The translations under genes were made by a program, and so were the position numbers. Shown here piece by piece: positions 9,776 through 61,284 of a stretch of DNA of 64,000 nucleotides. Under the pieces are notes generated by a model, which was given only the letters and a program-made list of their open reading frames with translations, had not been told where the DNA came from and searched no databases. Numbering within the stretch: position 1 is the stretch's first letter; every line of letters starts with the position of its first letter. The DNA lies in NCBI GenBank assembly GCA_031275285.1, contig JAISOY010000211.1, positions 17,318 to 81,317 on the forward strand, read 5' to 3'. This stretch comes from Bacteroidales bacterium (GTDB lineage Bacteria > Bacteroidota > Bacteroidia > Bacteroidales > UBA4181).

Positions 9776-10210
9776 TTATTGCATATTGACTATCCCTGAT
9801 CCATCGACTAACCAATTATTGTCTTTTTTTATAACCTTAACGGCCAGTTTAAATTGTTCCTGACCCTTCCCCTTTAAAAAAACATAATTATCCTTGTCGT
9901 TAATATAATCTAACTCATATCCTTCATCTGGGCGGTCTTGTCCGTTAATTACGGGATCGAAACCAAGTCCCAGTTCGGAATCCATTTCCCACCCTTTATC
10001 AATTACTCTTTTATACGCAGTTTTAAAAGATTCTGTGACCAAATTGGACGATTTGAACCATGCTTCAAGATCTTCAGGCGATGAAGCGTCTATTTTTATA
10101 TAGTTGTTTACAAATGTCAATGCACTGGTGACACGGGCATCATCTTTTTTATTAGATTGGCTACACGAGATAAGTAATAAAAACGCTAGAGGTATTATTT
10201 GTTTCATCAT
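9776..10210 (-). CDS. Hypothetical lipoprotein
   Basis: 144 aa with lipobox-like N-terminus (LAFLLLISCSQS). No catalytic motif recognised. Confidence 0.6.
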   Translation of the reverse strand: MMKQIIPLAFLLLISCSQSNKKDDARVTSALTFVNNYIKIDASSPEDLEAWFKSSNLVTESFKTAYKRVIDKGWEMDSELGLGFDPVINGQDRPDEGYELDYINDKDNYVFLKGKGQEQFKLAVKVIKKDNNWLVDGSGIVNMQ

Positions 10211-10478: not shown

Positions 10479-11810
10479 TTATAGTCTGGCCTTTACCTTT
10501 TTACTTTCTTCTTCATAACCGGGTTTATCGAGTAATGCAAACATGTTCTTTTTGTATGCTTCCACACCAGGTTGGTCGAATGGATTGACACCAAGCAGGT
10601 AACCGCTGATACCACATGCAATTTCAAAGAAATAGAAAAGTTTCCCTAAGTTGTATTCATTGATGGCCGGTATTTCTATACGGATATTGGGAACACCTCC
10701 GTCAACATGTGCCAGCATGGTTCCCAATTCAGCCATTTTATTCACTTCATCGATCCGTTTGCCGGAAAGGAAATTAAGGGTGTCAAGGTTTGCCGGATCA
10801 TTGGGGATGCGTAATTTATGGGCTGTGCGTTCAACAGAAATGACCGTTTCAAAGAGGATGCGCAATCCTTCCTGGATGTACTGACCCATTGAATGGAGGT
10901 CAGCTGTCAGGGTGACTCCTGCAGGGAAGATGCCTTTAAGTTCCTTGCCCTCGCTTTCCCCGTATAGTTGTTTCCACCATTCGGTAACATAGAGTAACTT
11001 AGGATGGTATCCCGCCAGTATCTCAACGGTCTTTCCGGTTTTGTAAAGTTCGTTGCGGGTAGCCGCATAAATAGCCGCTATATTTTCTTCAAAAGGAACT
11101 TCCGGGCCTGTCGCTTTCTGCATATCCACGGCTCCCTGCACCAGTTCCCTGATATTGAATCCTGCGATGGCAATAGGCAGTAATCCGACAGGGGTAAGCA
11201 CCGAATAACGGCCACCCACATCATCAGGAATCACAAAAGTACGGTAACCTTCCTGTACAGCCAGTGTCCGCAGAGCGCCACGTTTCTCGTCAGTGATGGC
11301 AACAATATAATCCTTGGCCTTTTCCTTACCGATTTTACTTTCCAGATGGTCTTTCAGTATGCGGAAAGCAACGGCAGGTTCAGTGGTGGTACCTGATTTT
11401 GAAATAACAACAATACCATATTTCTTGTTTTCCAACAAATCCAGCAATTCATATAAATAGTCCTCACTGATGTTTTGTCCGGCAAAAACAACTTTCGGGC
11501 TTTCATTTTCTTTCATTTGCCAGAAATTATCGGACAAAGCTTCCAATGTTGCTTTAGCTCCGAGATAAGATCCACCGATGCCTATCACCACTACTATTTC
11601 GGCATTTTTCTTGTAAAAAGAGGCTACATCTTCAATGGCGGCAAAGTCTTTATCTTTGATGGAGGAAGGGAGGTCTACCCATCCAAGGAAATCGCTTCCC
11701 TTGCCGGTTTTTTCATACAGGGCTTTTACATATCCCAATGCCTGATCCTTATTGGCATATATTTTTTCTTTTGATACGAAATCAGTGACTTTTTCGATAT
11801 TCAGCTTCAT
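10479..11810 (-). CDS. pgi: Glucose-6-phosphate isomerase
   Basis: 443 aa with typical short-form PGI motifs: [41 protein letters not shown]. Confidence 0.95.
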
Positions 11811-16746: not shown

Positions 16747-17217
16747 AAATCCGGAGAAATTTTTATATATTTTTAAGTAAGTTGTTGTTGATTAGTTGGT
16801 TGTGTGTTGATTTTAGATATAAGTGTTGAGTAAATTCATATTTTGGATTATAAATTTAGAATTATTTTCACGTAACCTCGTTTTTGGAGGAAGAGTAATA
16901 TCTATATGTATTAAATGAAAAATAGAGAAATAAACCGGTAATTTTGAGATAGTTTCTTAGTTCTTTTGATTTACTCTTTATTTCATTCGAAAGAGCCTTC
17001 TGGCGGCAATTACCGCTTATTTTACAATTTGAAAGAAATTCTATTGTATTTATTTGAAGTTACTTTCAATACGTTATTCAAAATTGTAAATTAATTTTAA
17101 ATTATAACTAAAATTGATTTTTTAACTTTATTTTATCTAAAATATTGTGATTTTGAAAAAATGTTATCTTTATTTGCATTGTTGTTTTGATAATGTAGTA
17201 AAAATAAGAAAACGGTT

Positions 17218-18048
17218 ATGAAATTCACAAAAATGCAAGGTTCAGGTAATGATTATATATATGTGGATTGTTCGCGGGAACAGATCAGCCGACCCGAGGA
17301 ATTTGCCGTTCGCTACAGTGACAGGCATAAAGGAATAGGTTCTGACGGTCTGGTGCTGATTATGCCATCCGAGATTTGTGATTTTCGTATGCGCATGTTT
17401 AATTCCGACGGTTCGGAGGCTCAGATGTGCGGTAATGCTTCACGGTGTGTCGGAAAGTATGTTTACGAACATGGTATGACCGGAAAAACACATCTGACAC
17501 TGGAAACCTTATCAGGGATAAAACAACTCTGGCTTTTTCCTGAAAACGGGGAAATAACAAAGGTTTGCGTAGATATGGGGGAACCTGTCCTGAGATCAAC
17601 AGGAATACCGGTGGCATTACCGGAAGAACAAATAATCGCGACTCCGGTCTATTTTCCTTCGGGGTCACACCTGATCACTTGTGTTTCTATGGGAAATCCT
17701 CATACAGTGATCTTTGAAAACAATATCGATTATTTTCCATTGAGGAGGATAGGTTCTGAAATCGAGTGTTATCCTATTTTCCCTGAACGCACCAATGTCG
17801 AATTTGTGAAGTGTATCTCATCTACACACCTGAAAATGCGGGTCTGGGAACGTGGAGCCGGCGAAACCCAGGCATGTGGGACAGGTGCCTGTGCTGCACT
17901 TGTTGCCGCAGTACTTAATGGGAAAGCAGAACGAAAAGCGACGATCAGTTTATTAGGTGGAGACCTTGAGATAGAATGGCGTGAAAGCGATAACCATGTA
18001 TATATGACCGGTGATGCCATTACTGTGTTTCATGGGGAAATAGAATAG
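17218..18048 (+). CDS. dapF: Diaminopimelate epimerase
   Basis: 276 aa: [41 protein letters not shown] (both catalytic Cys contexts). Confidence 0.95.
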
Positions 18049-18134
18049 TTAGAACGTTGGAAAGTCAAAAAGTTCATAAAGTTAGAAAGTCAGAATGTTG
18101 GAAAGTCAAAAAGTTCATAAAGTCAAAAGTTAGC
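18049..18134 (+). repeat. Array of ~10 degenerate 8-9 nt units ending in (A)AAGT (locus 1)
   Basis: Units read TAGAACGT TGGAAAGT CAAAAAGT TCATAAAGT TAGAAAGT CAGAATGT TGGAAAGT CAAAAAGT TCATAAAGT CAAAAGT. It contains a 27-nt internal direct repeat (18056-18082 and 18096-18122). It fills the whole dapF-dapL spacer. Confidence 0.85.
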
Positions 18135-19388
18135 ATGGCCTTAATCAACGAAAATTACCTGAAGTTAGCCGGCAATTATCTATTTGCAGAGATTGCCAAA
18201 AGAGTGAATGTCTACCAAAAATCACATCCCGAAAACAAGCTGGTTTTTCTTGGTATCGGTGATGTTACGCGACCGCTGGCTCCGGCAGTTATTGAAGCCA
18301 TGCAGAAAGCAACTCTTGAAATGGCCGATGCTGCAACTATGCATGGGTATGCTCCGTATGAGGGTTATTCATTCCTGATCGATGCCATTATAAAAAACGA
18401 TTTTGAAGCCCGTGGGGTAAGTATTGATCCGGATGAAATCTTCATTAGTGATGGCGCTAAAAGTGATACGGGAAACATCGGGGATATATTGAGCACCGAT
18501 AATATGGTGGCTGTGACCGACCCGGTATACCCGGTATATGTAGATACCAATGTGATGGCCGGGAGAGCCGGTGAATGGGAGGATGCTATGTGGAATGGTA
18601 TTGAATATCTGCCATGTACGGCGGCGAACAAATTTGTCCCTGAATTTCCGCAAAGGCGTGTGGACGTAGTATATCTGTGTTATCCCAATAATCCTACCGG
18701 AACCACACTAACCAAAAGTGAACTGAAAAAATGGGTCGATTATGCCGTTCAAAATGATGTGTTGCTACTGTTCGATGCAGCTTATGAAGCGTTCATCACT
18801 GAAAAAGATGTTCCACACAGCATCTATGAAATTGAAGGAGCCAAAAAAGTAGCTATAGAATTCCGTAGTTTCTCAAAAACAGCTGGTTTTACCGGACTCC
18901 GGTGTGGATACACGGTGGTGCCGAAAGAGTTAAAAGGATATTCCGATACAGGAAAAACTTTTTCTTTGAATGAATTATGGCGCCGTCGCCAATCGACGAA
19001 ATTCAACGGTACGGCTTATATTGTACAACGTGCGGCAGAAGCGGTTTATTCACCCGAGGGTAAACTACAGGTACGTGAGACCATCGATTACTATATGGAG
19101 AATGCAAAAATTATCCGGACAGGATTGGAGCAATGCGGAATGAAAGTATATGGCGGTATAAATGCCCCTTATATCTGGTTGCAGGTACCTGACGGAAAGT
19201 CATCGTGGGATTATTTTGATTTTCTGTTGCAAAAGCTGGAAATTGTATGTACTCCGGGTTCAGGTTTCGGGAAAAGCGGGGAAGGCTATGTAAGGCTCAC
19301 TGCATTTGGAAAGCGGGAAGATACTGTTGAAGCAATAAATAGAATGAAAGGAAAGGTTCATAAAGTTAGAATGTCAGAAAGTTCATAA
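18135..19388 (+). CDS. dapL: LL-diaminopimelate aminotransferase
   Basis: The start MALINENYLKLAGNYLFAEI is typical of DapL, and a PLP Lys context is present (FRSFSKTAGFTGLRCGY). The ORF-track start at 18057 reads through the upstream repeat array and was rejected. The last ~12 codons and the stop lie inside repeat locus 2. Confidence 0.9.
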   Translation: MALINENYLKLAGNYLFAEIAKRVNVYQKSHPENKLVFLGIGDVTRPLAPAVIEAMQKATLEMADAATMHGYAPYEGYSFLIDAIIKNDFEARGVSIDPDEIFISDGAKSDTGNIGDILSTDNMVAVTDPVYPVYVDTNVMAGRAGEWEDAMWNGIEYLPCTAANKFVPEFPQRRVDVVYLCYPNNPTGTTLTKSELKKWVDYAVQNDVLLLFDAAYEAFITEKDVPHSIYEIEGAKKVAIEFRSFSKTAGFTGLRCGYTVVPKELKGYSDTGKTFSLNELWRRRQSTKFNGTAYIVQRAAEAVYSPEGKLQVRETIDYYMENAKIIRTGLEQCGMKVYGGINAPYIWLQVPDGKSSWDYFDFLLQKLEIVCTPGSGFGKSGEGYVRLTAFGKREDTVEAINRMKGKVHKVRMSESS

Positions 19389-19458
19389 GGTTAGAAGGTT
19401 AAAAAGTTTATAAAGTTTATAAAGTCGGAAAGTTATAAAGTTTAGGAAGTGAAATAGT
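19351..19458 (+). repeat. Array of ~13 degenerate 8-9 nt units ending in (A)AAGT (locus 2)
   Basis: Units read GAAAGGT TCATAAAGT TAGAATGT CAGAAAGT TCATAAGGT TAGAAGGT TAAAAAGT TTATAAAGT TTATAAAGT CGGAAAGT TATAAAGT TTAGGAAGT GAAATAGT. It shares GTTCATAAAGTTAGAA.GTCAGAA.GT with locus 1. Confidence 0.85.
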
Positions 19459-19707
19459 TCATCGATAAATAAAATGTCATGAAAAAGTTAAAACTGGATT
19501 TTCAATTGTATCCGCGGATAAAGAACCCCTACGGGGGATGAACTGATTCCGGGGAATAGCCTGATAGACGATGGATTATATCCCTTGTATTATCCGGACA
19601 TATAAAAAAGGAATGACTGCCAAGCCCAGCGTAGTATTCGTTCGGAAAAATATACCTATTATTATCAATTTTTTCGGTTTAAGATTCAACTTTAATTTTT
19701 AGAAATC

Positions 19708-44055: not shown

Positions 44056-45051
44056 ATGGATCGTTTACGGTTTGGTGTGATCGGAACTAATTTTATATCC
44101 GATTGGGTCATTGCAGGAGGAAAACAGGATGAACGTTTTGAGTTATCTGCTGTATATTCGCGTACTCAGGAAACAGCAGATGCTTTTGCTTCCAGGCACC
44201 GGATCCCCTATACTTTTACTTCACTGGAGGCCATGTTGGAAAGTCCGCTGATAGATGCGGTATATATAGCCTCTCCCAATGCCCTTCATGCACAGCAAAG
44301 TATCCTTTGCATGGAACATGGAAAACATGTGTTGTGCGAAAAGGCTTTTGCTTCGAATGCACAGGAAGCCCGGGAAATGATGGCTGCATCCGGGCGTAAC
44401 CATGTGGTACTGATGGAAGCCATGAAACCCACGCTTACACCGAATTTTCTAAAGGTGAAGGATTCCCTTTCCAGGATCGGGACCATTCGTCGTTATTTCT
44501 CCTGTTATTGCCAGTATTCTTCACGGTATGACAAATTCCGGGAAGGAACCGTATTGAACGCCTTCCGGCCGGATCTGTCCAACGGAGCTTTGCCGGATAT
44601 CGGCGTGTATACTATTTACCCGATGGTGGTCTTATTCGGGCGTCCGGACAGCATTAAAGCACAGGGATTATTGTTGTCATCCGGAGTGGACGGGGAAGGC
44701 AGTGTGGTTTTCGGTTATCCGGGGATGGATGCGGCTGTGTTGTATTCAAAAATTGCCAACTCTTCCTTACCTACGGAAATACAGGGAGAGGAAGGTAATA
44801 TCATCCTTGACAGGATCAATATAATCGGAGATGTCCGAATTCAATACCGTAACGGTGAAGTTGAAGACCTGACCGCTTTTACTGAAAAAGAAGAATATTA
44901 CTATGAGATAAAGGAATTTATTGATGTAGTGCAGTCAGGAAGAAAGGAATCAACAATCAATAGTCTGGAAAACTCGCTGATCACTGTGGAAATTATGGAT
45001 GAGATACGTAGGCAGATAGGGGTTGTGTATCCTGCTGATAAAAATATCTAA
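44056..45051 (+). CDS. Gfo/Idh/MocA family oxidoreductase
   Basis: N-terminal Rossmann fold LRFGVIGTNFIS, and EKAF in the usual position. Confidence 0.85.
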   Translation: MDRLRFGVIGTNFISDWVIAGGKQDERFELSAVYSRTQETADAFASRHRIPYTFTSLEAMLESPLIDAVYIASPNALHAQQSILCMEHGKHVLCEKAFASNAQEAREMMAASGRNHVVLMEAMKPTLTPNFLKVKDSLSRIGTIRRYFSCYCQYSSRYDKFREGTVLNAFRPDLSNGALPDIGVYTIYPMVVLFGRPDSIKAQGLLLSSGVDGEGSVVFGYPGMDAAVLYSKIANSSLPTEIQGEEGNIILDRINIIGDVRIQYRNGEVEDLTAFTEKEEYYYEIKEFIDVVQSGRKESTINSLENSLITVEIMDEIRRQIGVVYPADKNI

Positions 45052-45146
45052 GAATTACACGCAGCAATTGAAAGATACAACGTCATAATATTAAAGGGAT
45101 GAAATTTACTTGTGACTGATTTTACTGTTATAAATTTACATTTGTT

Positions 45147-45713
45147 ATGAAAAACGTATGGATTTTTGTATTTCTTGGTTTTTTGATATCTTGTTCCGAT
45201 GACGATTCCTTGCCATATTCCTATTCAAGCGAACATACCATCTATTCAAAATCCGAACAAACGACATTGCGGGAACTTGTATTTATGGTAAAACCATATA
45301 TGATAGACCAGGGTATTAAAAAATATATTGTGTCCCCATCAATTATTAACGTGAAAATTATGATCAATGGAGAGGAATGGGGTGTTTTTGAGTCTGTTAA
45401 AGTAGATACGTCTCATATCAATAAGGAAATTTCCGGAGATTTTTATACTTGGCTGACACCTGTTAAATATGTTGTTAGAGCTCCCTACCTGATTTCTGGA
45501 GACATATTGACCACTGCAGGAGCATATTCTGATTTGTTAAATCGGTATATTTCATTAAAGCCAGGGACTTATATATGCCAGATCGAATATTTTGAAATAA
45601 TGAATAATAACCATGAAACACGACGGATATATCCTTTGATTGCAGTACCTTTCGACGTTAAAGAAAATACAGCTAGTGCATTTATTGATGAATTTGAAAT
45701 ATCTATAGATTAA
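45147..45713 (+). CDS. Hypothetical lipoprotein
   Basis: 188 aa with lipobox FLISCSDD. No family recognised. It lies in visibly AT-rich DNA. Confidence 0.55.
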   Translation: MKNVWIFVFLGFLISCSDDDSLPYSYSSEHTIYSKSEQTTLRELVFMVKPYMIDQGIKKYIVSPSIINVKIMINGEEWGVFESVKVDTSHINKEISGDFYTWLTPVKYVVRAPYLISGDILTTAGAYSDLLNRYISLKPGTYICQIEYFEIMNNNHETRRIYPLIAVPFDVKENTASAFIDEFEISID

Positions 45714-45716
45714 ATT

Positions 45717-46064
45717 ATGAGAAAGTTTATATTTTTATTGATATTGATCCCATTCTTCTATTCCTGTAAAGATAAAGCTTATATCAAGATTCAGAATAAA
45801 GTCCGTAATGCGACCCTGAACAATGTGAGTTGGGACAATAACTCTATTGCTTATTCTTTACTTCCGGGCGAAGTCAGTGAGGAATTGAAGATAGTTGATG
45901 ATAAAGACGATTTTCCAAAACGGGCAGTCGTTAAGTTTTATATGCAAGGAGCCGAAAATCAGGTATACCTTCAAACAAAATATTCGTTTTCTTTAGATGC
46001 CGGTCAAACCCTGTTGATTGTGATATCCGATACAACTTCGGTGATCAATCCGATAACAGAATGA
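45717..46064 (+). CDS. Hypothetical lipoprotein
   Basis: 115 aa with lipobox FFYSCKDK. It starts 3 nt after the preceding gene. Confidence 0.55.
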   Translation: MRKFIFLLILIPFFYSCKDKAYIKIQNKVRNATLNNVSWDNNSIAYSLLPGEVSEELKIVDDKDDFPKRAVVKFYMQGAENQVYLQTKYSFSLDAGQTLLIVISDTTSVINPITE

Positions 46065-46149
46065 GCTGAATCCTACCTACTTTTATCCATGTCGTATTTG
46101 TCTATATTTATTTAAGGGAGATACTATTAATACCATTATATCCAAAAAA

Positions 46150-46180
46150 TTTGATTATTTCAAAATGTAAAGTATATTTG
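46150..46180 (+). promoter_or_regulatory. Candidate sigma-A promoter (TTTG-N19-TATATTTG) for the membrane-protein/HTH pair
   Basis: TTTG at 46150-53 and TATATTTG at 46173-80, about 48 nt upstream of the ATG at 46228. Confidence 0.5.
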
Positions 46181-46227
46181 TCAAAAATATATGTTTATTT
46201 TACTTTTTGTCTAATCTGTTTTATACC

Positions 46228-46638
46228 ATGAAAAGGAAAAATGATGTAATTATTCTATTCCCTGCTTATTTTAAGAAAATAGGGATCGCAATTATCGCCT
46301 TTGTATTCATTATGATTGGCGCTTTAAAGATATCAGGAATTGTTTCTGCATTGGATTTATCTAAAGAACTTATCCGGACTGTTATTTATGCGATGTTGAT
46401 CATAGGTTTGTTTTTTATGGCATGGAGCAGGGAAAAAAAAGAAGATGAGATGAGTTTATTTATACGTTTTCAGGCTATTACAGTCTCATTTGTCTTTGTG
46501 ATTGCGTATGTACTGATAGAGCCTGTAGGGAATTATATATTCTCCATGGAAAGAGTTAGTTACGGGCATAATGTCATTTTATTGATGTTGATATTCTATT
46601 TATTGATGTATTATTTGATAAAAAAAAGATATCAATGA
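46228..46638 (+). CDS. Small 4-TM membrane protein paired with an XRE-type regulator
   Basis: Four hydrophobic helices. The stop overlaps the downstream start as ATGA. The ATG at 46228 was preferred to the non-ATG start at 46207. Confidence 0.6.
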   Translation: MKRKNDVIILFPAYFKKIGIAIIAFVFIMIGALKISGIVSALDLSKELIRTVIYAMLIIGLFFMAWSREKKEDEMSLFIRFQAITVSFVFVIAYVLIEPVGNYIFSMERVSYGHNVILLMLIFYLLMYYLIKKRYQ

Positions 46639-46841
46639 GAAATACGATAAAAGTCGAGAGGGCAAAACTGAATATCACCCAGCAGGAGTTGGCTGATAAG
46701 ATCGGTGTTTCACGGCAAACGATCAATTCCATCGAGACACAAAGATTCATACCATCTACCGTGTTAGCGCTTAAAATTTCCGGTTTTTTTAAGGTAACTG
46801 TGAATGAGATCTTTATGCTTGAAGACGATGATTTTATTTGA
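46635..46841 (+). CDS. Short XRE/Cro-type helix-turn-helix transcriptional regulator (YozG/y4mF-like)
   Basis: 68 aa: LNITQQELADKIGVSRQTINSIETQRFIPSTVLALKIS. Confidence 0.88.
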   Translation: MRNTIKVERAKLNITQQELADKIGVSRQTINSIETQRFIPSTVLALKISGFFKVTVNEIFMLEDDDFI

Positions 46842-46842
46842 A

Positions 46843-46970
46843 TGAGTAGGGAAGTAGGAATGTTTATAAAGTCTGAAAGTCATAAAGTTTATAAAGTTTG
46901 AAAGTCTGAATGTTCATAAAGTAGAGTTTCGGGTGTCTTTTCGGAATAATTTTCATTTCTTCTTGTTCTA
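46843..46970 (+). repeat. Array of ~10 units ending in (A)AAGT plus a conserved tail GTTTCGGG..TTTTCGG..TTTTCAT (locus 3)
   Basis: Units read AGGGAAGT AGGAATGT TTATAAAGT CTGAAAGT CATAAAGT TTATAAAGT TTGAAAGT CTGAATGT TCATAAAGT, followed by AGAGTTTCGGGTGTCTTTTCGGAATAATTTTCATTTCTTC. Confidence 0.85.
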
Positions 46971-47220
46971 CCTTTTTCCAATTTCATTTAGAAGCTATTT
47001 AAAAATTATTATTGAATAAAATTTGAACATCATCTCAAATTAAAATCATTTATTATCAATCAATTCTACGAAATCCAATAGGGTCAGGTTCTATTACTTT
47101 TTCAGCTTTTCTAACCATATTTCATTCTTCGTTACAAAAACTTGCCTGTATCGGCAAAAATGAGTATTTTTAAAGTTGATTTTAAATAAAACCTGCCGAT
47201 AAGAGCAATTTATATACTTT

Positions 47221-48108
47221 ATGCAATATCTATCAGTCAGTCAGTTCGCAGAGAAATGGGGTGTGCCGGAAAGAACCATCCGTAATTATTGTGCGACAGG
47301 AAAAATAAAAGGAGTTTTCTTAACAGGTAAAACGTGGAATATACCCGAAGATGCTCTTTTACCTAAAAAGAGTAGTAGCCGGTTTAGTGATAATCTTTTG
47401 CTCAATATTCTTAAAGAGCAAAAAGATATGAAGCTGAAAGGGGGTATCTATCATCGTACACAAATCGACTTAACCTACAATTCCAATCGTATTGAAGGAA
47501 GTAAACTAACAGAGGAGCAGACCCGCTATATCTTTGAAACAAATACAATAGGAGTAACTAATGAAACTATTAACGTGGATGATATAATCGAAACATCCAA
47601 TCACTTCCGTTGTATCGACCTGATTATTGAAAAGGCAAAATCAAAACTTACAGAAGCGTTAATAAAAGAATTGCACTATATACTTAAGTCCAGTACCTCA
47701 GATAGTCGTAAAGATTGGTTTGGGATGGGCGATTATAAGAAACTACCTAACGAAGTAGGGGGAATGAAAACATGCTCTCCCGAAGAAGTTCAGAATACGA
47801 TGAAAGAACTACTCAATTGTTATCATTCCCAAAAAGATAAAACGATTGAGGATATAATTGAGTTTCATTATAAATTTGAATCTATACACCCGTTTCAGGA
47901 CGGTAATGGGCGTGTAGGCCGCCTCATTATGTTTAAAGAATGTTTGGCTAATAATGTGGTGCCATTTATTATTGATGAAGATTTGAAATGGTTTTATTAT
48001 CGCGGGTTGCAGGAATGGGAAAAAGCACATGGTTATTTAATTGATACATGTCTGACAGCTCAGGATAAATACAAAGAAATACTTAACTATTTCAAGATTA
48101 ATTATTAA
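47221..48108 (+). CDS. Fic family protein (class II, with N-terminal HTH domain)
   Basis: Canonical Fic motif HPFQDGNGRVGRL. Inhibitory-helix motif S-N-R-I-E-G, matching (S/T)xxxE(G/N), lies upstream of it. N-terminal MerR/excisionase-like HTH (LSVSQFAEKWGVPERTIRNYC). Confidence 0.9.
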   Translation: MQYLSVSQFAEKWGVPERTIRNYCATGKIKGVFLTGKTWNIPEDALLPKKSSSRFSDNLLLNILKEQKDMKLKGGIYHRTQIDLTYNSNRIEGSKLTEEQTRYIFETNTIGVTNETINVDDIIETSNHFRCIDLIIEKAKSKLTEALIKELHYILKSSTSDSRKDWFGMGDYKKLPNEVGGMKTCSPEEVQNTMKELLNCYHSQKDKTIEDIIEFHYKFESIHPFQDGNGRVGRLIMFKECLANNVVPFIIDEDLKWFYYRGLQEWEKAHGYLIDTCLTAQDKYKEILNYFKINY

Positions 48109-48227
48109 TGTGAATCAGGGGTTGAAATGAATGCTACGATTTTATCGGATATCCCGAAGGGATTGAATGATATTCGCCCCATTACCTTCGATGAACTCTC
48201 ATCATTCAAAGTTCATTGTTAAATAGT

Positions 48228-48380
48228 ATAAGTCTGAAAGTAGGAATGTTTATAAAGTCATAAAGTAGGAAAGAGGAAAGTTTATAAAGTAGGAAAGTAC
48301 AAAAGTTTGAACGTTCATAAAGTCATAAAGTAAGGTTCGGGAATTTTTTTTCCGGCATTTTTTCATCTCTTTTTCATTCA
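48228..48380 (+). repeat. Array of ~13 units ending in (A)AAGT plus a conserved tail GGTTCGGG..TTTCCGG..TTTTCAT (locus 4)
   Basis: Units read CTGAAAGT AGGAATGT TTATAAAGT CATAAAGT AGGAAAG AGGAAAGT TTATAAAGT AGGAAAGT ACAAAAGT TTGAACGT TCATAAAGT CATAAAGT, followed by AAGGTTCGGGAATTTTTTTTTCCGGCATTTTTTCATCTC. It shares AGTAGGAATGTTTATAAAGTC with locus 3. Confidence 0.85.
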
Positions 48381-48423
48381 TCATTCATTTTTCATTGTTA
48401 TTTCATATTTTTACCTACTTAAA

Positions 48424-49812
48424 ATGGAAAAATCAGAATCTTATTCATTATCGGAGTTCAACCGGATGGTCGGGTTGAAATTGAAGGCGACTATGCCCGG
48501 TTCATATTGGGTATCAGGAGAAATCAATGAGATCCATGTAAACAATAGCGGGCACTGTTTTTTAGAATTGATTGAGAAGGAAGGCCAGGGAGAAAAGATT
48601 GTTGCCAGGAGCCGGGCCAATATATGGGCTTATCATTTCCGGATGCTACATCCTTATTTCAAAACCATGACCGGGCAGAACCTTTCGGCAGGACTGAAAG
48701 TAATGCTCCAGGTCAATATCGAGTTTCATGAACTTTATGGAATCAGCCTGCAGGTAACGGATATCAATCCGGCTTTTACGGTAGGCGAGTTGGCTGTACA
48801 GAAGCAACTGGTGATCCAGCGTCTGACAGATGAAGGCGTGATCGACATGAACAGGGAGCTGGATATACCTCTTGTCCCACAAAGAATTGCTGTTATCTCT
48901 TCCGGAACAGCTGCCGGGTATGGGGATTTCTCCGATCAGCTACACAGCAATACGTACGGATATGCTTTTCATCATACCCTTTTTCCTGCCGTTATGCAGG
49001 GGAATGAAGCGGAGCAGTCGATTATTCGTGCTTTGGAAGAGATCTTCGATCGTGAAGTTGAGTTTGACGTGGTGGTGATCATCAGGGGCGGAGGCTCACA
49101 AACCGATCTGAACTGTTTCAATAGTTACCGGTTGGCTTATCATATGGCACAATTTCCTTTACCCATTATTACCGGGATCGGGCATGAACGTGACGAGACT
49201 ATTGCAGATATGGTGGCCTGTATCCCATTGAAAACCCCGACGGCGGTTGCCGAGTTTCTGATAGATAGAGCTGCTTCCATCCATCATGAACTTGAGGAAC
49301 TGACACAACGTTTATACGATTCCGTTACTTCTCAGGTTCGGTTTTCCGCACAGCAATTGCAGGAGCAAAGCTATCGCTTGCAGAACATACTTCATACACA
49401 GTTGCATGAGCAGGAAAAATTATTACAGGGCCTTCAGCTTACCTTGTCGCATGCAGTATCCATGTTTTTATCGGAGAAAAGAAACGGACAGGATCAGTTA
49501 TTAGTAAAAGCCCGTTCGTTGGTATGTAATACGGTACAGGTGCAAATGACAAAGATTCCGGCATTGGAAAAGCAACTCAGTAAGGTCACCCGGGCTATGC
49601 TGGAAAAGAAACGGGAACGGGTTGTATGGCTCGGTAACAAGTTATCGTTGCTGGATCCTGTAAAATTGCTGGAACGGGGTTATTCCATCACCCTGGCAAA
49701 TGGGAAGGTGATTCGTGGGATTGACGAACTCGGAGCAGGGCAACGTATAGAAACCTTATTCAAGGACGGAAAGGCAGAGAGTGTGGTAGAAAAAGCGGTA
49801 AGAGACTTGTAG
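48424..49812 (+). CDS. xseA: Exodeoxyribonuclease VII large subunit
   Basis: 462 aa: OB-fold N-terminus (WVSGEINEI...NSGHCFLEL), IAVISSGTAAG, IIRGGGS, TGIGHERD. Confidence 0.93.
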   Translation: MEKSESYSLSEFNRMVGLKLKATMPGSYWVSGEINEIHVNNSGHCFLELIEKEGQGEKIVARSRANIWAYHFRMLHPYFKTMTGQNLSAGLKVMLQVNIEFHELYGISLQVTDINPAFTVGELAVQKQLVIQRLTDEGVIDMNRELDIPLVPQRIAVISSGTAAGYGDFSDQLHSNTYGYAFHHTLFPAVMQGNEAEQSIIRALEEIFDREVEFDVVVIIRGGGSQTDLNCFNSYRLAYHMAQFPLPIITGIGHERDETIADMVACIPLKTPTAVAEFLIDRAASIHHELEELTQRLYDSVTSQVRFSAQQLQEQSYRLQNILHTQLHEQEKLLQGLQLTLSHAVSMFLSEKRNGQDQLLVKARSLVCNTVQVQMTKIPALEKQLSKVTRAMLEKKRERVVWLGNKLSLLDPVKLLERGYSITLANGKVIRGIDELGAGQRIETLFKDGKAESVVEKAVRDL

Positions 49813-50924: not shown

Positions 50925-51482
50925 TTGAATGAACTTGATCAGATATGGCGCGAAATAAAGAGAGGAAATGAAAAAGCATTTTATATGCTTTATACCTTGT
51001 TATTTTCTAATCTTGTAAGATATATCCAGCAAATCGTAAAAGATATTTTTTTGGCTGAAGATATTGTTCAGGAAGTATTTATTAAACTATGGGACGAACG
51101 GAATAAGATCCATATTGTCGGCTCCCTGCAGTCATACCTGTACAAGATGTCCCATAATTTATCCATCAATAAGTTACAACATTTTGCAACCGCTAAAAAT
51201 AAGGTAAACAGAACTATTAGTGAAGAAGAATGGCAATTCATTAAGGATACTTATCAGATTGACAGTTACGTAATTGAAAATATTGAAAAAGAAGATACCG
51301 ATGTGATTATCCGGCAGGTGATAGCTTCTCTTCCTGAAAAATGCCGCGAAGTATTTATACTAAGCCGTTATGAAAATCTGGATAATAATGAAATAGCTCA
51401 AAGATTGAATATTTCAGTAAATACGGTAAGATCACATATATATCAGGCCCTTGAAATAATCCGGCAGAAAGTCATGAAATGA
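50925..51482 (+). CDS. ECF-type RNA polymerase sigma-70 family factor
   Basis: 185 aa with region 2 (FLAEDIVQEVFIKLW) and region 4 HTH (NNEIAQRLNISVNTVRSHIYQA). The start is an apparent TTG, so the exact start is uncertain. Confidence 0.88.
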   Translation: MNELDQIWREIKRGNEKAFYMLYTLLFSNLVRYIQQIVKDIFLAEDIVQEVFIKLWDERNKIHIVGSLQSYLYKMSHNLSINKLQHFATAKNKVNRTISEEEWQFIKDTYQIDSYVIENIEKEDTDVIIRQVIASLPEKCREVFILSRYENLDNNEIAQRLNISVNTVRSHIYQALEIIRQKVMK

Positions 51483-51604
51483 TTTCATTCATTACGACTG
51501 ATTTACAGCTAGCCTGTGTCAACCAATGAAATTTTTTTTAAAAATATTCGTTTTCACTAATCATTTAAAAAGAAAATCCTGTCATAATTAATAGAAAACA
51601 ATAT

Positions 51605-52732
51605 ATGAAAGAGACCGTTGTCATTTCAGATCAAATCAAACAACTGATTTCCGGGTATTTATCTGATTCATTAACCCCGGAGGAATTATCCGTTTTGAAA
51701 TCGTGGATCATGCAATCTCCGGAAAATAAAAAATATTTTAATGAGATCCGGCACACATGGGCATTATCCGGAACAACTATTCAAAATAAAGAGTTCTCCG
51801 TAAGAAAGCTGGCGGGTAAATTGTCCAAACGTCATAAAAAACAATCCCGGAGATTCTGGACATGGCAGAAAGTCGCTGCATCATGGGGAATTATTGTCAT
51901 TTGTGCTACTTCTTTATGGTTTTTTTTGAATGGAGACGATATATCCGTACAACCTGATACTCCCGTTGTCGCCCAATCTACACATACAGTGATCCAGGCA
52001 GAACGTGGTTCCCAAAGTTTGATAAATTTACCTGACGGAACCAAAGTCTGGCTCAACGGTGGTAGTACCTTATCATACATTCATGACTACAATATCTCGG
52101 AAAGAATCGTAGAACTTTCAGGGGAAGCCTGTTTTGACGTAGTCACCAATCCGGATAAGCCATTTGTGGTAAAGGCCGGAAAATTATCTATTAAAGCGTT
52201 GGGAACGATGTTCAATGTGAAAGCATATCCCGAAGATAAAATAATTACTACCACCCTGGTAAAAGGAAATGTGGTCGTAGAGGGCAGGAATAAAAATGAT
52301 GAGGAATTTTCGATTCCTATGAAGCCGAATGAAAATATTACTTACCTCATAGATGAGAATATGGTTCATGACGCCGGTAGCAAGGCTGACATGAGTGATA
52401 TAAAAAAGATCGAACCATTGATCCCGATCATTAAAGAAGATAATATTAAACCGGAATTATATACATCCTGGAAAGATGAAATATGGGTAATCGAAAAACA
52501 ACAATTGGAAAATTTGTGCAAAGACCTTGAACGCAGGTACAATGTCAGTTTTGTATTTCTTACGGATGAACTAAAAACCATGCATTTTTCGGGAACGATT
52601 CAGCGACAGACAATAGAACAGGTATTGAGTATTTTGCAACGGACAATGCCTATAAATTTTTTAGTGGAAAAGAATGTGATTACACTTTCGATGAATATGG
52701 AATTAATGGAGAGATTTAAAACACAACAATGA
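51605..52732 (+). CDS. FecR-family anti-sigma factor
   Basis: 375 aa with a single TM (~aa 95-115) and a FecR domain (LPDGTKVWLNGGSTLSY, GEACFDV, FVVKAG). Confidence 0.9.
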   Translation: MKETVVISDQIKQLISGYLSDSLTPEELSVLKSWIMQSPENKKYFNEIRHTWALSGTTIQNKEFSVRKLAGKLSKRHKKQSRRFWTWQKVAASWGIIVICATSLWFFLNGDDISVQPDTPVVAQSTHTVIQAERGSQSLINLPDGTKVWLNGGSTLSYIHDYNISERIVELSGEACFDVVTNPDKPFVVKAGKLSIKALGTMFNVKAYPEDKIITTTLVKGNVVVEGRNKNDEEFSIPMKPNENITYLIDENMVHDAGSKADMSDIKKIEPLIPIIKEDNIKPELYTSWKDEIWVIEKQQLENLCKDLERRYNVSFVFLTDELKTMHFSGTIQRQTIEQVLSILQRTMPINFLVEKNVITLSMNMELMERFKTQQ

Positions 52733-52882
52733 TTATCACTATTAAAGAAGGAGTGCCTATGGAGAAATAACAAAACAAAGAAGCCCTTCCATGCCGAAAG
52801 GGCCTCATTTCAAATGGTATTTTTCGATATCCTTTGCAGAGGATTCGAAAACAAAATATAAAATAAAACTAAAGACAATATT

Positions 52883-55800
52883 ATGACAAATAAATGTACA
52901 TTTATTCGTGTAAGGTATTTTTTTTCGAAAAATAATTCTTTAGCACTGTTTATGAAATTATCTTCTATTCTTATCTTAATAGTCAATCTCAATATTTATG
53001 CCAATGTATATCCTCAAAATGTCAGGCTTGAAAATGCTATTGAGAATCAAACGATAAAAGATATTTTAAAACTGCTTGAGAATAAAAGCGATTATCGTTT
53101 TTTCTACAGTGATGATTATCCGGTTTTAAATAAAGTTATTTCTGTAAGCGCTCAGGAGTCAGATATATATGTATTACTCAACCAAATATTTAATGACACA
53201 CCGGCGTCATATGAGATATTGGATGATAATGTCGTCGTAATCAGTCCATTTTCCCGGCAGACCATAAGAATAACCGGCACCGTTTCGGATGATTCAGGGG
53301 AAACCATGCCCGGGGTAAATGTTCTTATTAAAGGAACCGGTACTGGAATTACTACTGATGTTGATGGTAGGTTCTCGATCGATGTTCCTAATACGGAATC
53401 TGTTCTGGTTTTTTCATTTGTAGGGTACCACGAACAGGAAATTCCCGTCGGGGAACAACGTATGATACAGGTGATAATGGTTGAATCTTCAACGGAAATC
53501 GAAGAAGTCGTCGTTGTCGGCTATGGGGTTCAGAAAAAAGAAACCATGGTCGGAGCTGTATCACAGGTAGGGAATAAAGCGCTGATGCAGTCGGGGACTG
53601 CCAGTGTAACCAATGCCATTGCAGGTAAATTATCAGGTGTATTAACGATGCAGCAATCCGGTGAACCCGGGAATGATAATGCGGAAATCATTATACGCGG
53701 AGTTTCCAGTTGGAACGGCTCCCAGCCATTGGTGCTGGTAGATGGTGTGGAACGGGACTTCAAGGATCTGGATCCGAACGAGATCAATACCATCTCAATT
53801 TTGAAAGATGCTTCCGCTACCGCTGTTTTTGGTGCAAGAGGCGCCAACGGGGTATTGATCGTCACTACCAAAAGAGGTGTGGAAGGAAAACCGAAACTGG
53901 ACATATCCGCATCCTTTGGCATGGAAAAGGCCACAAATATACCGGATCATATAGATTCCTACACCACTATGAAAATGTTAAATGTTGCCAGAATGAATGA
54001 GCAACAATTTACGGAACTGATCCCCGAATATGTGCTGGAAGAATACAGGAATCCGTCATCCCGTTTAAACGCACTGCGATATCCGAATGTAAACTGGTTT
54101 AAAGAAGTGACCAGGCCGTTTGCGCCCACGGCAACTGCAAATGTCAATGTGACGGGGGGAACCAGTTTTGTCAAATATTTTGCATCTTTGGGTTATACCC
54201 ATCAGGGCTCGTACTTCAAAGGTGAGAAAGACGGACATGTTGATTCCCGCTTTTGGAACAATAGGTTCAATTACCGGACCAACCTTGATTTTAATGTTTC
54301 GAAATCAACCTTATTGTCATTCAATATCGGCGGGGAGGTAAGTATCAAGAATCAGCCCACTATCGGAAATATCTGGTGGACCTTGTATGGTACTTCTCCG
54401 GCCCGCTTCCCTACTTATTTCCCATCATGGCTTCTGGAAGAATATCCGGACCAGGACTATCCCGATGATACGGGAATACGTTATGCTGAACCCATCGGAG
54501 AATATATGGATAATCCGTATACCGTATTTAACCAGAGGGCTTTTAACCGGTATCTGGAAACCAAGCTTTTTACTGATGTAATGTTGAAACAGGATCTGGA
54601 TTTCCTGCTTAAAGGGCTATCCATTAGAGGAAAAGTATCCCTCAGTACCTATTACAGAAATCTTTCCCTGACATCAGCAACTACGAACAATTATCCCCAA
54701 TACCAGTTTGATTATGAAAAAGCGGCAATCGGGGAAAATCCGTGGTTCAGACAGGGACAGGGTGACGAGACATACAAAATGCCGCCGCTGGCAATCGGAA
54801 TAGGTGGTTTGCAGAGTGGTTATTACAGTGATCTGTATTACGAATTTTCACTGGATTACAATAACACTTTCGGAGGCCACACTGTTTCGGTATTGGCATT
54901 GATGAACCGTCAGCAGAAAAACAACGGAACAGAGTTCGCCTATTATAACCAGGGACTGGTCGGACGGATCACCTATGATTACCGGAATAAATACCTGGCT
55001 GAAGTAAATGTCGGTTATACGGGATCGGAAAGATTTGCACCGGGCAACCGGTTCGGATTCTTTCCTTCAGGCGCTGTAGGTTGGGTAATATCGGAAGAAC
55101 AGTTTTTCCGCGATGCACTACCCTGGATCAGCAAGATGAAGATACGCTATTCCGATGGTTTGGTCGGCAGTGATAATACATCCAGCAGATGGTTGTATAT
55201 CAGTGATTATTTTGAAGACAGTAAAAAATACATCCGCGAGGATAAAGCCGCCAATACCCGTGCACAATGGGAAGAAGCCAGAAAACAGGATTTAGGGGTT
55301 GAAATAGGTTTATTCGATAATTCTCTTCATTTTTCGGTAGACCTTTTTAAAGAACGCCGTACCAATATGTTGTTGGTTCCACAAAGTACCCCCACGCTCT
55401 TGGGTATTCAATTTAAAGAATTGAATCTGGGGAAAATGAAGAAACACGGTATAGAGGTAGAGATCGAATATAAGAACACAACAGACGGGGGCTTCTATTA
55501 CTTTGTACGCGGTATGGTCGGTATCAATGAAAACAGGATCCTTTTTAAGGACGATCCACCGTATGCACCCGATTATCAAAAACAGGAAGGAAAACCTTTG
55601 GAAGCCCAGACAAGCGGAGTACAGCTTGCAGGAAACGGCTATTTTACTTCTGTGGATGATATCCATACTTTACCATCTCCGTTACCTGTTTCAGGTCTCG
55701 CGATAGGCGATTATGCATTTCTTGATTATACAGCCGACGGATTGATCAGCAGCCTGGATGCCTATCCGATCAAAGGATCGCTTTATCCTCCCGTAACATA

Positions 55801-56305
55801 TTCGTTTTCTGCGGGATTCAATTACAGGAATTTCGAGTTCAGTTTCCTGTTTCAGGGTAATGCCGGAAAATATGTATCGTACAACCAGAACTTTGAAGCC
55901 GAGTTCACGAAAGGTAATTATCAGGTACATGCTTCGCAACTGGATTATTGGACACCTACCAATACGGGAGCCAATCACTCCACCCTGCATTTCCCGGGCA
56001 CCGGTTATATCAGGAACCTGGCATGGCTTCCTGCTACGGAAGGAACAGGATATACCACGTATATCGAAGGCCGGTTCTGGAGAAAAGCCGATTATCTCAA
56101 ACTGAAGGAAGTATATATAGGATACAAGTTTGAACCTAAATGGGAAAAACTTCCGGGTATTTCCTCTATCAATGTTTATATGACAGGAAATAACCTGTTG
56201 ACTTTTACCAAATTGATCGAAGGTGATCCTGAGCGGAAGGATTTCAGCAAGGGATTTTATCCTCAATTGCTCAGTGTTAAACTTGGTATGAGGGTTTCTT
56301 TTTAA
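52883..56305 (+). CDS. SusC/RagA-family TonB-dependent transducer (with N-terminal STN signalling domain)
   Basis: STN-like segment (IKDILKLLENKSDYRFFYSD...YEILDDNVVVI), CarboxypepD_reg-like domain (ITGTVSDDSGETMPGVNVLIKGTGTG), TonB box-like VVVVGYG, plug, and C-terminal aromatic residue (RVSF). The Met at 52952 is a likely alternative start. Confidence 0.93.
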   Translation: MTNKCTFIRVRYFFSKNNSLALFMKLSSILILIVNLNIYANVYPQNVRLENAIENQTIKDILKLLENKSDYRFFYSDDYPVLNKVISVSAQESDIYVLLNQIFNDTPASYEILDDNVVVISPFSRQTIRITGTVSDDSGETMPGVNVLIKGTGTGITTDVDGRFSIDVPNTESVLVFSFVGYHEQEIPVGEQRMIQVIMVESSTEIEEVVVVGYGVQKKETMVGAVSQVGNKALMQSGTASVTNAIAGKLSGVLTMQQSGEPGNDNAEIIIRGVSSWNGSQPLVLVDGVERDFKDLDPNEINTISILKDASATAVFGARGANGVLIVTTKRGVEGKPKLDISASFGMEKATNIPDHIDSYTTMKMLNVARMNEQQFTELIPEYVLEEYRNPSSRLNALRYPNVNWFKEVTRPFAPTATANVNVTGGTSFVKYFASLGYTHQGSYFKGEKDGHVDSRFWNNRFNYRTNLDFNVSKSTLLSFNIGGEVSIKNQPTIGNIWWTLYGTSPARFPTYFPSWLLEEYPDQDYPDDTGIRYAEPIGEYMDNPYTVFNQRAFNRYLETKLFTDVMLKQDLDFLLKGLSIRGKVSLSTYYRNLSLTSATTNNYPQYQFDYEKAAIGENPWFRQGQGDETYKMPPLAIGIGGLQSGYYSDLYYEFSLDYNNTFGGHTVSVLALMNRQQKNNGTEFAYYNQGLVGRITYDYRNKYLAEVNVGYTGSERFAPGNRFGFFPSGAVGWVISEEQFFRDALPWISKMKIRYSDGLVGSDNTSSRWLYISDYFEDSKKYIREDKAANTRAQWEEARKQDLGVEIGLFDNSLHFSVDLFKERRTNMLLVPQSTPTLLGIQFKELNLGKMKKHGIEVEIEYKNTTDGGFYYFVRGMVGINENRILFKDDPPYAPDYQKQEGKPLEAQTSGVQLAGNGYFTSVDDIHTLPSPLPVSGLAIGDYAFLDYTADGLISSLDAYPIKGSLYPPVTYSFSAGFNYRNFEFSFLFQGNAGKYVSYNQNFEAEFTKGNYQVHASQLDYWTPTNTGANHSTLHFPGTGYIRNLAWLPATEGTGYTTYIEGRFWRKADYLKLKEVYIGYKFEPKWEKLPGISSINVYMTGNNLLTFTKLIEGDPERKDFSKGFYPQLLSVKLGMRVSF

Positions 56306-56322
56306 CATAAAACCGGACAACA

Positions 56323-58176: not shown

Positions 58177-58190
58177 AAAATTGATCAAAT

Positions 58191-61280: not shown

Positions 61281-61284
61281 TAGG

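Follow-up and report, generated by a model that had tools for sequence, protein, structure and literature searches.

Four tandem arrays of a degenerate 7–9 nt unit of the form N3-4 A-A-A/x-G-T, joined head-to-tail, are present in a 64,000-nucleotide stretch of contig JAISOY010000211.1 from a Bacteroidales bacterium. This whole stretch, with GC content of 41.6%, is further referred to as the window. Two arrays flank dapL and two flank a Fic gene; all four lie on the plus strand and belong to one unit family. We favor, with moderate confidence, the reading that they form a lineage-specific family of long simple-sequence repeats (LSSR), similar to the short tandemly repeated repetitive sequences (STRR) of cyanobacteria, which slippage and local copying would produce and selection on the adjacent open reading frames (ORFs) would hold in check.

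The arrays were detected with Tandem Repeats Finder (TRF). Array 1 (18041–18137) has a period of 8 nt in 11.4 copies and a super-period of 41 nt in 2.4 copies with 87% matches (score 150). Array 2 (19351–19462) has a period of 8 nt in 10 copies and a super-period of 25 nt (score 106), and contains about 13 units. Arrays 3 and 4 were reported by TRF at 46858–46922 (score 88) and 48236–48332 (score 117), respectively; reading of the sequence moved their 5' limits to 46843 and 48228, so that array 3 occupies 46843–46922 (about 10 units) and array 4 occupies 48228–48332 (about 13 units). Cutting behind every GT yields units such as TCATAAAGT, TAGAAAGT, CAGAATGT, TGGAAAGT, CAAAAAGT, TTATAAAGT, CTGAAAGT and AGGAAAGT, mostly of 8 and 9 nt and rarely of 7 nt; (UCAUAAAGU)n is used as short-hand for the repeated unit. 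Essentially every unit closes with GT preceded by two or three A, with T, G or C at times in position −3, and the first 3–4 bases are variable. The arrays are composed of 39–47% A and just 4–8% C (45% A and 8% C in array 1).

The order of units differs between the arrays. In array 1, which has about 11 units, TAGAACGT TGGAAAGT CAAAAAGT TCATAAAGT TAGAAAGT CAGAATGT is followed by the block again; the duplicated 41-nt block found by TRF corresponds to five units. Array 2 reads TCATAAAGT TAGAATGT CAGAAAGT TCATAAGGT TAGAAGGT TAAAAAGT TTATAAAGT and further, array 3 starts with AGGGAAGT AGGAATGT TTATAAAGT CTGAAAGT CATAAAGT, and array 4, with CTGAAAGT AGGAATGT TTATAAAGT CATAAAGT.

Such arrays are not expected by chance. 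The pattern TYATAAAGTNNNRAAGTNNNAAWGT has five matches in the window, which together take in all four arrays, versus 0.00 expected from 100 shuffles, and AAGT-N4-AAGT-N4-AAGT has three matches versus 0.01 in shuffles. A search of the whole window for chains of at least three AAGT spaced by 7–10 nt retrieved these four places only, all on the plus strand; no AAGT runs were found on the minus strand, and there is no inverted copy in the window. Arrays 1 and 2 have a 27-mer in common, at 18072–18098 (GTTCATAAAGTTAGAAAGTCAGAATGT) and 19356–19382 (GTTCATAAAGTTAGAATGTCAGAAAGT). Hence, a preliminary description of the window made from the sequence, which had reported tandem NNNRAAGT-type arrays at four places including 46843 and 48228, the 27-mer pattern common to arrays 1 and 2, and the location of all four on the strand of the flanking genes with no copy in the opposite orientation, was accurate within the window on each of these points.

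That description had also named an assembly artefact as a reason for doubt. An artefact is hardly credible here. Short tandem repeats are prone to mis-assembly, and the contig of the independent Logan assembly of run SRR14710916 stops 273 nt past dapL; nevertheless, the two assemblies are base-for-base identical over 17135–19661, including arrays 1 and 2. Moreover, the arrays are degenerate and not collapsed perfect repeats, and such arrays occur in hundreds of independent genomes and metagenomes.

All genes flanking the arrays are encoded on the plus strand. Array 1 spans the entire spacer between dapF (17218–18048, stop codon at 18046–18048) and dapL (18135–19388, stop codon at 19386–19388): it includes the dapF stop and runs through to the dapL ATG at 18135–18137. 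The start of dapL was corrected to 18135, no earlier, in agreement with the 417-aa database protein P0001. Array 2 begins inside dapL, 12 codons ahead of its stop, so that the first 38 nt of the array provide the codons for the last 12 DapL residues (GKVHKVRMSESS) and the stop codon. The window DapL is 100% identical to a protein annotated from the metagenome-assembled genome of an uncultured Bacteroidales bacterium, and the next nearest DapL has just 76–77% identity. DapL homologues end 2–8 residues beyond the conserved EA(V/I)ER(I/M)K motif, whereas the window protein continues into the array with the repeat-encoded GKVHKVRMSESS; therefore the original end of dapL has been replaced by the repeat. 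Array 3 begins 2 nt past the stop codon (46839–46841) of a 68-aa ORF with an XRE-type helix-turn-helix (HTH) domain (46635–46841). Array 4 begins 120 nt past the stop codon (48106–48108) of the Fic gene (47221–48108), and 6 nt past the stop of a doubtful 31-aa ORF; the next gene is xseA (48424–49812). Thus, three arrays start adjacent to the stop codons of called genes, and array 4 does so only relative to a doubtful ORF.

The predicted RNA folds of the arrays were compared with those of dinucleotide shuffles. Array 1 folds worse than the shuffles (z = +1.96), with 198 of 200 shuffled sequences at least as stable, and array 4 with its 3' tail is also weaker (z = +1.09). Array 3 plus tail has a z-score of −0.08, and array 2 plus the region downstream, of −1.35. 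The possibility that an array and its T-rich tail form one long hairpin was rejected, since the values for arrays 4 and 3 are no better than those of shuffles. No Rfam 15 family matched anywhere in the window at the gathering score, and around the arrays there was no match even at E ≤ 1. In a transcript the arrays would be unstructured, A-rich and C-poor stretches.

Judging by their alignment, arrays 3 and 4 are paralogous copies with a common tail. They align with 76% identity over about 150 nt, 3' tails included, and contain an identical 22-mer (46852–46873 in array 3). Their 10-mer Jaccard index is 0.21, versus 0.02–0.09 for the other pairs of arrays. The tail of array 3 (46923–46995, plus strand) consists of a weak hairpin, GTTTCGGG..TTTTCGG, followed by a T-rich stretch, and is homologous to the tail of array 4 (48333–48415, plus strand), which consists of a hairpin at 48337–48355, CATTTTTT and a T-rich stretch up to the start of xseA at 48424. 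The hairpin after array 4 (TCGGGAATTTTTTTTCCGG followed by CATTTTTT) is terminator-like in a consensus scan, and is a consensus match only; the scan did not pick up the hairpin after array 3, which is visible by eye and in the predicted fold. Arrays 1 and 2 have neither a downstream terminator nor a tail like that of arrays 3 and 4.

A low-GC island has arrays 3 and 4 inside it and at its right edge. GC content is 0.30–0.36 at 44.9–48.4 kb versus 0.45–0.49 outside, and the island (44900–48400) is probably an acquired accessory segment. It lies between a GFO/IDH/MocA oxidoreductase gene and xseA, and contains two ORFs that match nothing in Pfam, a pair made up of a small membrane-protein gene and an XRE HTH gene, and the Fic/HTH_17 gene. 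Further along the window, at 50925–63093, genes for an extracytoplasmic function (ECF) sigma factor, a FecR-like anti-sigma factor and SusC/SusD-like pairs form a typical Bacteroidota polysaccharide-utilisation locus, which is unrelated to the arrays.

The dapF-dapL spacer and the region after dapL were then compared with those of three relatives (loci L122, L123 and L125, with DapL about 75–77% identical), as the preliminary description had proposed, and presence of the repeat does vary between them. The order of genes, from dapF and dapL through a conserved small ORF to the P-II/amtB operon, is kept. In L122, the dapF-dapL spacer contains a palindromic element at 9893–10001 that resembles repetitive extragenic palindromic (REP) sequences (ACCTGATAGGTTTTAAAAACCTGTTAGGTC ... 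its inverse), and dapL is followed by a short non-repeat spacer with no array. In L123, an inverted pair of arrays of TTTCGAG-type heptamers occupies the dapF-dapL spacer (9907–10001), and units GTTTCGA/GTTTAAA at the dapL 3' end (11210–11260) again encode the protein C-terminus, KSFEFKV*. In L125, the dapF-dapL spacer is only 13 nt long, and repeats after dapL are absent. Hence, AAAGT arrays are missing from the orthologous spacers of all three relatives, where other repeats or nothing are found; because of the palindrome in L122 and the heptamers in L123, the same two spacers are seen to hold different repeats in different lineages. Since the orthologous spacers differ, the window arrays are recent and lineage-specific. 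The compared sequences indicate that the spacers around dapL attract repeats of differing kinds.

Arrays 1 and 2 were considered as a special pair bracketing dapL. This was rejected: their 10-mer Jaccard index (0.06) makes them no closer than non-neighbouring arrays, and dapL was not brought between the arrays as a cassette, because the dapF-dapL synteny is ancestral in the relatives.

The small ORF downstream of array 2 is an observation in its own right. It is located at 19480–19542 (MKKLKLDFQLYPRIKNPYGG*), between dapL and an operon of a 243-aa gene, P-II and amtB, and contains a CCCC-N3-GGGG hairpin. It is conserved at the protein level: its counterparts are MKKLKLDYRLYPRIKNPFGGCA in L122 and MKRFKSDDRLYPRAQNPFGG in L125, with synonymous changes in LYPR, and in L122, L123 and L125 it is followed by non-coding sequence with a common GACCGCGACGAAACT.GTCCCG-like motif. 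No Rfam match was found for the ORF and the non-coding stretch up to 19707. The ORF could act on the nitrogen-assimilation genes as a leader peptide or attenuator.

Species-representative genomes were scanned with a pattern matching all four window arrays, and at least 120 loci were obtained. Metagenomes were scanned with a stricter pattern, from which pure (TTATAAAG)n was excluded, yielding 86 loci; no locus of the metagenome collection has 31-mers in common with the window, and this organism is carried by a single sample. In viral contigs, the original genome-scan pattern had 50 matches, and 28 arrays were obtained, which are too few for any trend. About half of the genome matches listed belong to Bacteroidota (Flavobacterium, Pontibacter, Belliella, Pedobacter, Limimorpha and many Bacteroidales metagenome-assembled genomes, MAGs); the others include Patescibacteria, Ignavibacteria, Nitrospirota, KSB1, Leptospirales and MAGs labelled Gammaproteobacteria. 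A Flavobacterium with arrays of (GTCATAAA)n is an example of a cultured carrier. Among the matches listed, successive AAGT are spaced by 8 nt in 896 cases, by 7 nt in 205 and by 9 nt in 210, and the commonest units are TATAAAGT, CATAAAGT, TTGAAAGT, TGGAAAGT, TAGAAAGT, TTATAAAGT and TCATAAAGT. The surveyed loci (1.41 Mb) also contain 149 other arrays with 6–10 nt units of many sequences, one per 9.5 kb, and several unit types frequently stand side by side in one spacer (L043, L081, L103, L073). The surveyed loci thus show a general repeat-rich state and not one special motif.

Three of these loci, all on metagenome contigs, are informative about the number of units. In L141, L145 (reverse strand) and L147 (4105–4260), one right flank (CCTTTAAATTGACTATTTGAATAAACTGTGA...) follows arrays of 4, 5 and 12 units, respectively, and the genes upstream of the common flank, all sugar-nucleotide genes, differ; the one in L147 is GDP-mannose 4,6-dehydratase-like by its N-terminus. 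These arrays seem to lie where variable gene cassettes are joined. Alongside them are 7-nt repeats of other types (ATTGACT-like, CTGTGAA-like).

Two further features were observed next to AAAGT arrays. In several unrelated genomes, genes of the PF05635 family (23S rRNA intervening-sequence protein, a four-helix bundle) start 1–60 nt from an array: L026:1839–2204, L103:1413–1619, L141:7299–7646, L150:1630–1977, L161:6861–7205 and L165:3647–4069. Three of them were assigned by Pfam scan (E from 1e-33 to 1e-35), and the remainder, by an N-terminal motif. Approximately six of the ten PF05635 genes in the fetched loci abut an array; as the loci are centred on arrays, this fraction does not establish an enrichment, and there are no such genes in the window. 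A G+C-rich REP-like hairpin (GGGGCGAAC...GTTCGCCCGTAC) stands directly after some arrays (L132:690–720 and 865–900; L151:154–185 and 681–710; L162), which makes a second module of array plus hairpin, comparable to arrays 3 and 4 of the window with their tails.

Orientation was assessed against a rough gene map of the surveyed loci, with ORFs of at least 100 aa picked greedily by length; for the genome set, all orientation and polarity counts given here and below are among the matches listed. Between co-directional ORFs, 46 arrays are sense and 41 antisense in the genome set (23:20 for Bacteroidota alone), and 19 are sense and 41 antisense in the metagenome set. A global sense bias was rejected on these counts; the four sense arrays in one 64-kb window are weak evidence, since both orientations occur elsewhere. 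The expectation of the preliminary description that further copies would be found in other genomes was confirmed, and its expectation of a uniform orientation was not.

A polarity of another kind is pronounced. With the AAAGT strand taken as the upper one, an ORF boundary lies from −25 to +30 nt of the array 5' end in 88 cases and of the right end in 24; the corresponding counts for the metagenome set are 54 and 18. The preference is retained for arrays without an inverted partner (59:22 and 30:16, respectively). The 88 left-end boundaries are formed by 43 stops of sense genes and 45 starts of opposite-strand genes; several of the latter, checked by eye, are genuine N-termini (Obg, sugar-nucleotide epimerases, GDP-mannose dehydratase). 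As the starts of opposite-strand genes show it too, the polarity follows the ORF boundary and not the direction of transcription. Stop-adjacent arrays are mostly sense (43:10 in the genome set and 24:10 in the metagenome set), as in the window, and this too follows from the contact between ORF boundaries and the 5' end of the AAAGT strand. The strand bias on which the preliminary description had based a role at the RNA level is therefore lost as general co-orientation and retained as the sense of stop-adjacent arrays.

Inverted partners obey the same rule. A partner within 120 nt is located to the right in 42 + 32 arrays (genomes + metagenomes) and to the left in 1 + 1, i.e. 3' of the AAAGT strand in 74 of 76 arrays having a partner (binomial 8e-20). 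Hence, the order of a pair is 5'-(N3-4 AAAGT)n-loop-(ACTTT N3-4)n-3'. A general rule of A-tract before T-tract, as in a bidirectional terminator, was rejected: other arrays with 6–10 nt units in the same loci are A-rich-first in 9 cases versus 7, so that the polarity is specific to the AAAGT units. No target-site duplications were seen around 27 inverted pairs, and a MITE (miniature inverted-repeat transposable element) with target duplication was rejected. Replication-strand bias was rejected as well, the orientation relative to the local GC skew being 59:52 over 111 loci (p = 0.57); in the window, the GC skew of the plus strand is positive throughout. We found no gradient of directional growth: neither the identity of adjacent units along the arrays (0.34 vs 0.23, p = 0.14) nor the degenerate units at their flanks (p = 0.38) showed one. 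Of 163 single arrays, strong hairpins stand on the right of 13 (about 8%) and on the left of one; a hairpin anchor 3' of every array was rejected, given this low fraction and the overall similarity of the left and right hairpin content (p = 0.54). The source of the polarity may be selection on the sequences tolerated beside start and stop codons, or a directional copying process or protein.

In the reading that we favor, slipped-strand mispairing or unequal recombination would account both for the origin of the arrays and for changes in their length; the duplicated block of array 1, which would have grown by doubling 41 nt of five units, and the differences in unit number between L141, L145 and L147 argue for this. 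Spread to other spacers would occur by local copying or recombination, to which the paralogy of arrays 3 and 4, tails included, points. Expansion would stop on meeting sequence under selection. The latter could account for the arrays starting at stop codons and even supplying the last codons and the stop of dapL. Because the orthologous sites lack arrays and both orientations occur, conserved function is disfavored; we infer no sequence-specific function, and any effect on expression would probably be incidental.

Several observations weigh against this reading. Slippage alone leaves unexplained why one family turns up in several phyla and at four spacers within 64 kb, why the variation of units is concentrated in the first 3–4 positions while A-A-x-G-T is kept, and where the polarity (74/76; 88:24; 54:18) comes from. 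Nor do the arrays show a gradient of unit age, which would mark directional growth. The conserved AAAGT half, the occurrence of one family in many phyla, and the polarity speak for constraint. Finally, as some repeat is found in the dapF-dapL spacer of three of the four lineages, something there could be selected.

A role at the RNA level is a possible but on the whole unlikely alternative. A sense array would serve as an unstructured A-rich platform in 3' untranslated regions or intercistronic spacers and be bound by a single-strand RNA-binding protein, for example ribosomal protein S1, a cold-shock protein or an Rbp of the RNA recognition motif (RRM) type, which would tune translation of the next gene or mRNA stability. 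All four window arrays are sense and stop-adjacent (array 4 relative to the doubtful ORF), array 1 runs to the dapL ATG, the transcripts are predicted to be C-poor and markedly unstructured (z = +1.96 and +1.09), the core of the unit is conserved while its prefix varies, and stop-adjacent arrays elsewhere are mostly sense (43:10 and 24:10); a comparable proposal exists for the TAACTGA repeats (PMC4679880). However, the overall ratios of sense to antisense (46:41 and 19:41) and the equal polarity at opposite-strand starts (45, with 43 stops) sever the arrays from the direction of transcription. Moreover, the orthologous spacers have no array, dapL of L125 manages on a 13-nt spacer, and no candidate protein has been identified. 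Action at the DNA level seems less probable still. The arrays, with or without tails, would be recombinase- or transposase-like sites or homology patches for cassette exchange, with the Fic gene as a cassette between two direct copies. It is in this light that one may regard arrays 3 and 4 with their tails as direct repeats flanking Fic in the low-GC island, the inward-pointing inverted pairs (74/76) as resembling the subterminal binding-site repeats of transposon ends, and the single flank of L141, L145 and L147 as joined via 4, 5 and 12 units to different sugar-nucleotide genes; a role in gene rearrangement is suspected for the TAACTGA repeats too (PMC4679880). Yet the 27 inverted pairs lack target-site duplications, the window has no inverted partner and no recombinase gene next to the arrays, dapL remains in its ancestral position despite the bracketing arrays, and arrays 1 and 2 are not especially similar (Jaccard 0.06).

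Very unlikely, in our opinion, is an association with terminators, in which the arrays would be expanded A-rich flanks of intrinsic terminators, and (ACTTT)n, expanded U-tracts, the whole acting bidirectionally. The terminator-like hairpin and T run after array 4, the weak homologous hairpin and T-rich tail after array 3, the A-rich arm 5' and T-rich arm 3' of the pairs elsewhere (74/76), and the strong hairpins on the right of 13 single arrays and on the left of one, of 163, agree with it. But arrays 1 and 2 have no downstream terminator, array 1 being inside the dapF-dapL pair; other arrays with 6–10 nt units show no A-rich-first rule (9 vs 7); the hairpin content does not differ overall between the right and left sides (p = 0.54); and convergent genes (12 and 4) do not have arrays between them more often than divergent ones (16 and 8). 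Since the strong AAAGT-specific polarity (74/76; 88:24; 54:18) is not accounted for by terminator architecture, replication skew or target duplications, it can also be conceived, although we regard this as doubtful, that the arrays are cross-phylum polar elements read by dedicated machinery. A repeat-binding protein or an enzyme of copying or recombination would then fix their orientation and the order of pairs, and the elements would mark or mediate cassettes like the Fic island.

Whichever reading is adopted, the arrays matter for annotation. They can rewrite gene ends, as the C-terminus and stop of DapL show, they break short-read assemblies, and they can pass for regulatory RNA. The survey shows one unit family in Bacteroidota, Patescibacteria, Ignavibacteria and others, and the polarity at ORF boundaries and in inverted pairs offers a testable handle on the making or tolerance of such arrays. 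Should a dedicated protein or copying mechanism lie behind the polarity, it would be of general interest; should it come only from tolerance beside starts and stops, the arrays would be ordinary filler of the genome.

Short-period intergenic arrays, such as STRR, TAACTGA repeats and LSSR, have been known for decades, and to our knowledge they have no accepted function or origin. The preliminary description did not recognise a named family here. A literature search for the exact repeat sequence returned nothing relevant, so that for the octamer itself this stands in the literature searched; the kind of repeat, in contrast, is known from LSSR, STRR and TAACTGA repeats (PMC4679880, PMC2670836). 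The same description had set aside two other kinds of repeat, and rightly so. Clustered regularly interspaced short palindromic repeats (CRISPR) have repeats of about 23–50 nt with unique spacers of comparable length between them, as opposed to the period of 7–9 nt found here, and the window arrays have no spacers. A palindromic REP was rejected because arrays 1 and 4 fold worse than shuffles (z = +1.96 and +1.09), and no inverted copy is present in the window. The latter fact, together with the lack of duplications around the 27 pairs elsewhere, led to rejection of a MITE. Similarity to REP, bacterial interspersed mosaic elements (BIMEs) and MITEs (e.g. BrickBuilt of Porphyromonas gingivalis, PMC4596501) consists in dispersed intergenic occurrence, often after genes, and arrays 3 and 4 with their tails form a dispersed module of about 150 nt that resembles the behaviour of such elements. 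Unlike them, the window arrays have no palindromic unit, no terminal inverted repeats or target-site duplication, and a period of 7–9 nt versus 20–40 nt.

The TAACTGA heptamer repeats known from marine Beggiatoaceae, from Cyanobacteria and from five Bacteroidetes, Paludibacter among them (MacGregor 2015, PMC4679880), come closer. They are intergenic and unstructured, lie directly against start and stop codons, overlap the ends of ORFs and vary between close relatives; the role proposed for them at the RNA level is much like the platform described above, and a role in gene rearrangement is suspected (PMC4679880). The window arrays are likewise short tandem direct repeats, almost all intergenic, which end at or overlap ORF boundaries, contain stop codons in every frame, are unstructured by prediction, occur in Bacteroidetes spacers with other short repeats mixed in, and are missing from the same spacer in close relatives. 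On the reverse strand the unit reads TAACTTTA or TGAACTTTA, the former having TAACT in common with TAACTGA. The differences are in the unit, which is 8–9 nt long instead of 7, has another sequence (N3-4 AAAGT) and is degenerate with the AAAGT half alone kept, and in placement: the TAACTGA repeats lie just upstream of starts in the forward orientation, those of Beggiatoaceae pointing to start codons, whereas the arrays of the window come after stop codons and have the opposite sense, and array 1, the only one to reach a start, does so in that opposite sense.

STRR of filamentous cyanobacteria are families of short tandem repeats found genome-wide in intergenic regions, with unit types side by side; inverted arrays can make hairpins between genes, e.g. 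hupS-hupL, and a role in transcript stability or translational coupling has been suggested for these repeats (PMC2670836). The surveyed loci share with them the families of short tandem intergenic units and the juxtaposition of unit types. In contrast to the 7-bp cyanobacterial unit, those of the window are of 8 and 9 nt and rarely of 7 nt; only one unit family occurs in the window, with no inverted copy that could form a hairpin. As far as the summary in PMC4679880 goes, LSSR (Mrazek 2007) are tandem repeats of 1–11 nt units with a length above chance, in some lineages the predominant units are those of 5–11 nt, coding regions are kept free of units with a length not divisible by three, and polymerase slippage is the proposed source. 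The window arrays have a TRF period of 8 nt in 10–11 copies with AAGT spacing of 7, 8 and 9 nt, and their length is above chance (5 vs 0.00 and 3 vs 0.01 in shuffles). LSSR is a descriptive class, into which both STRR and the TAACTGA repeats fit, and not a sequence family, and it does not cover the AAAGT core and the polarity. The window arrays are thus best read as a new sequence flavour within a known, poorly understood class of repeats, and not as a new kind of system.

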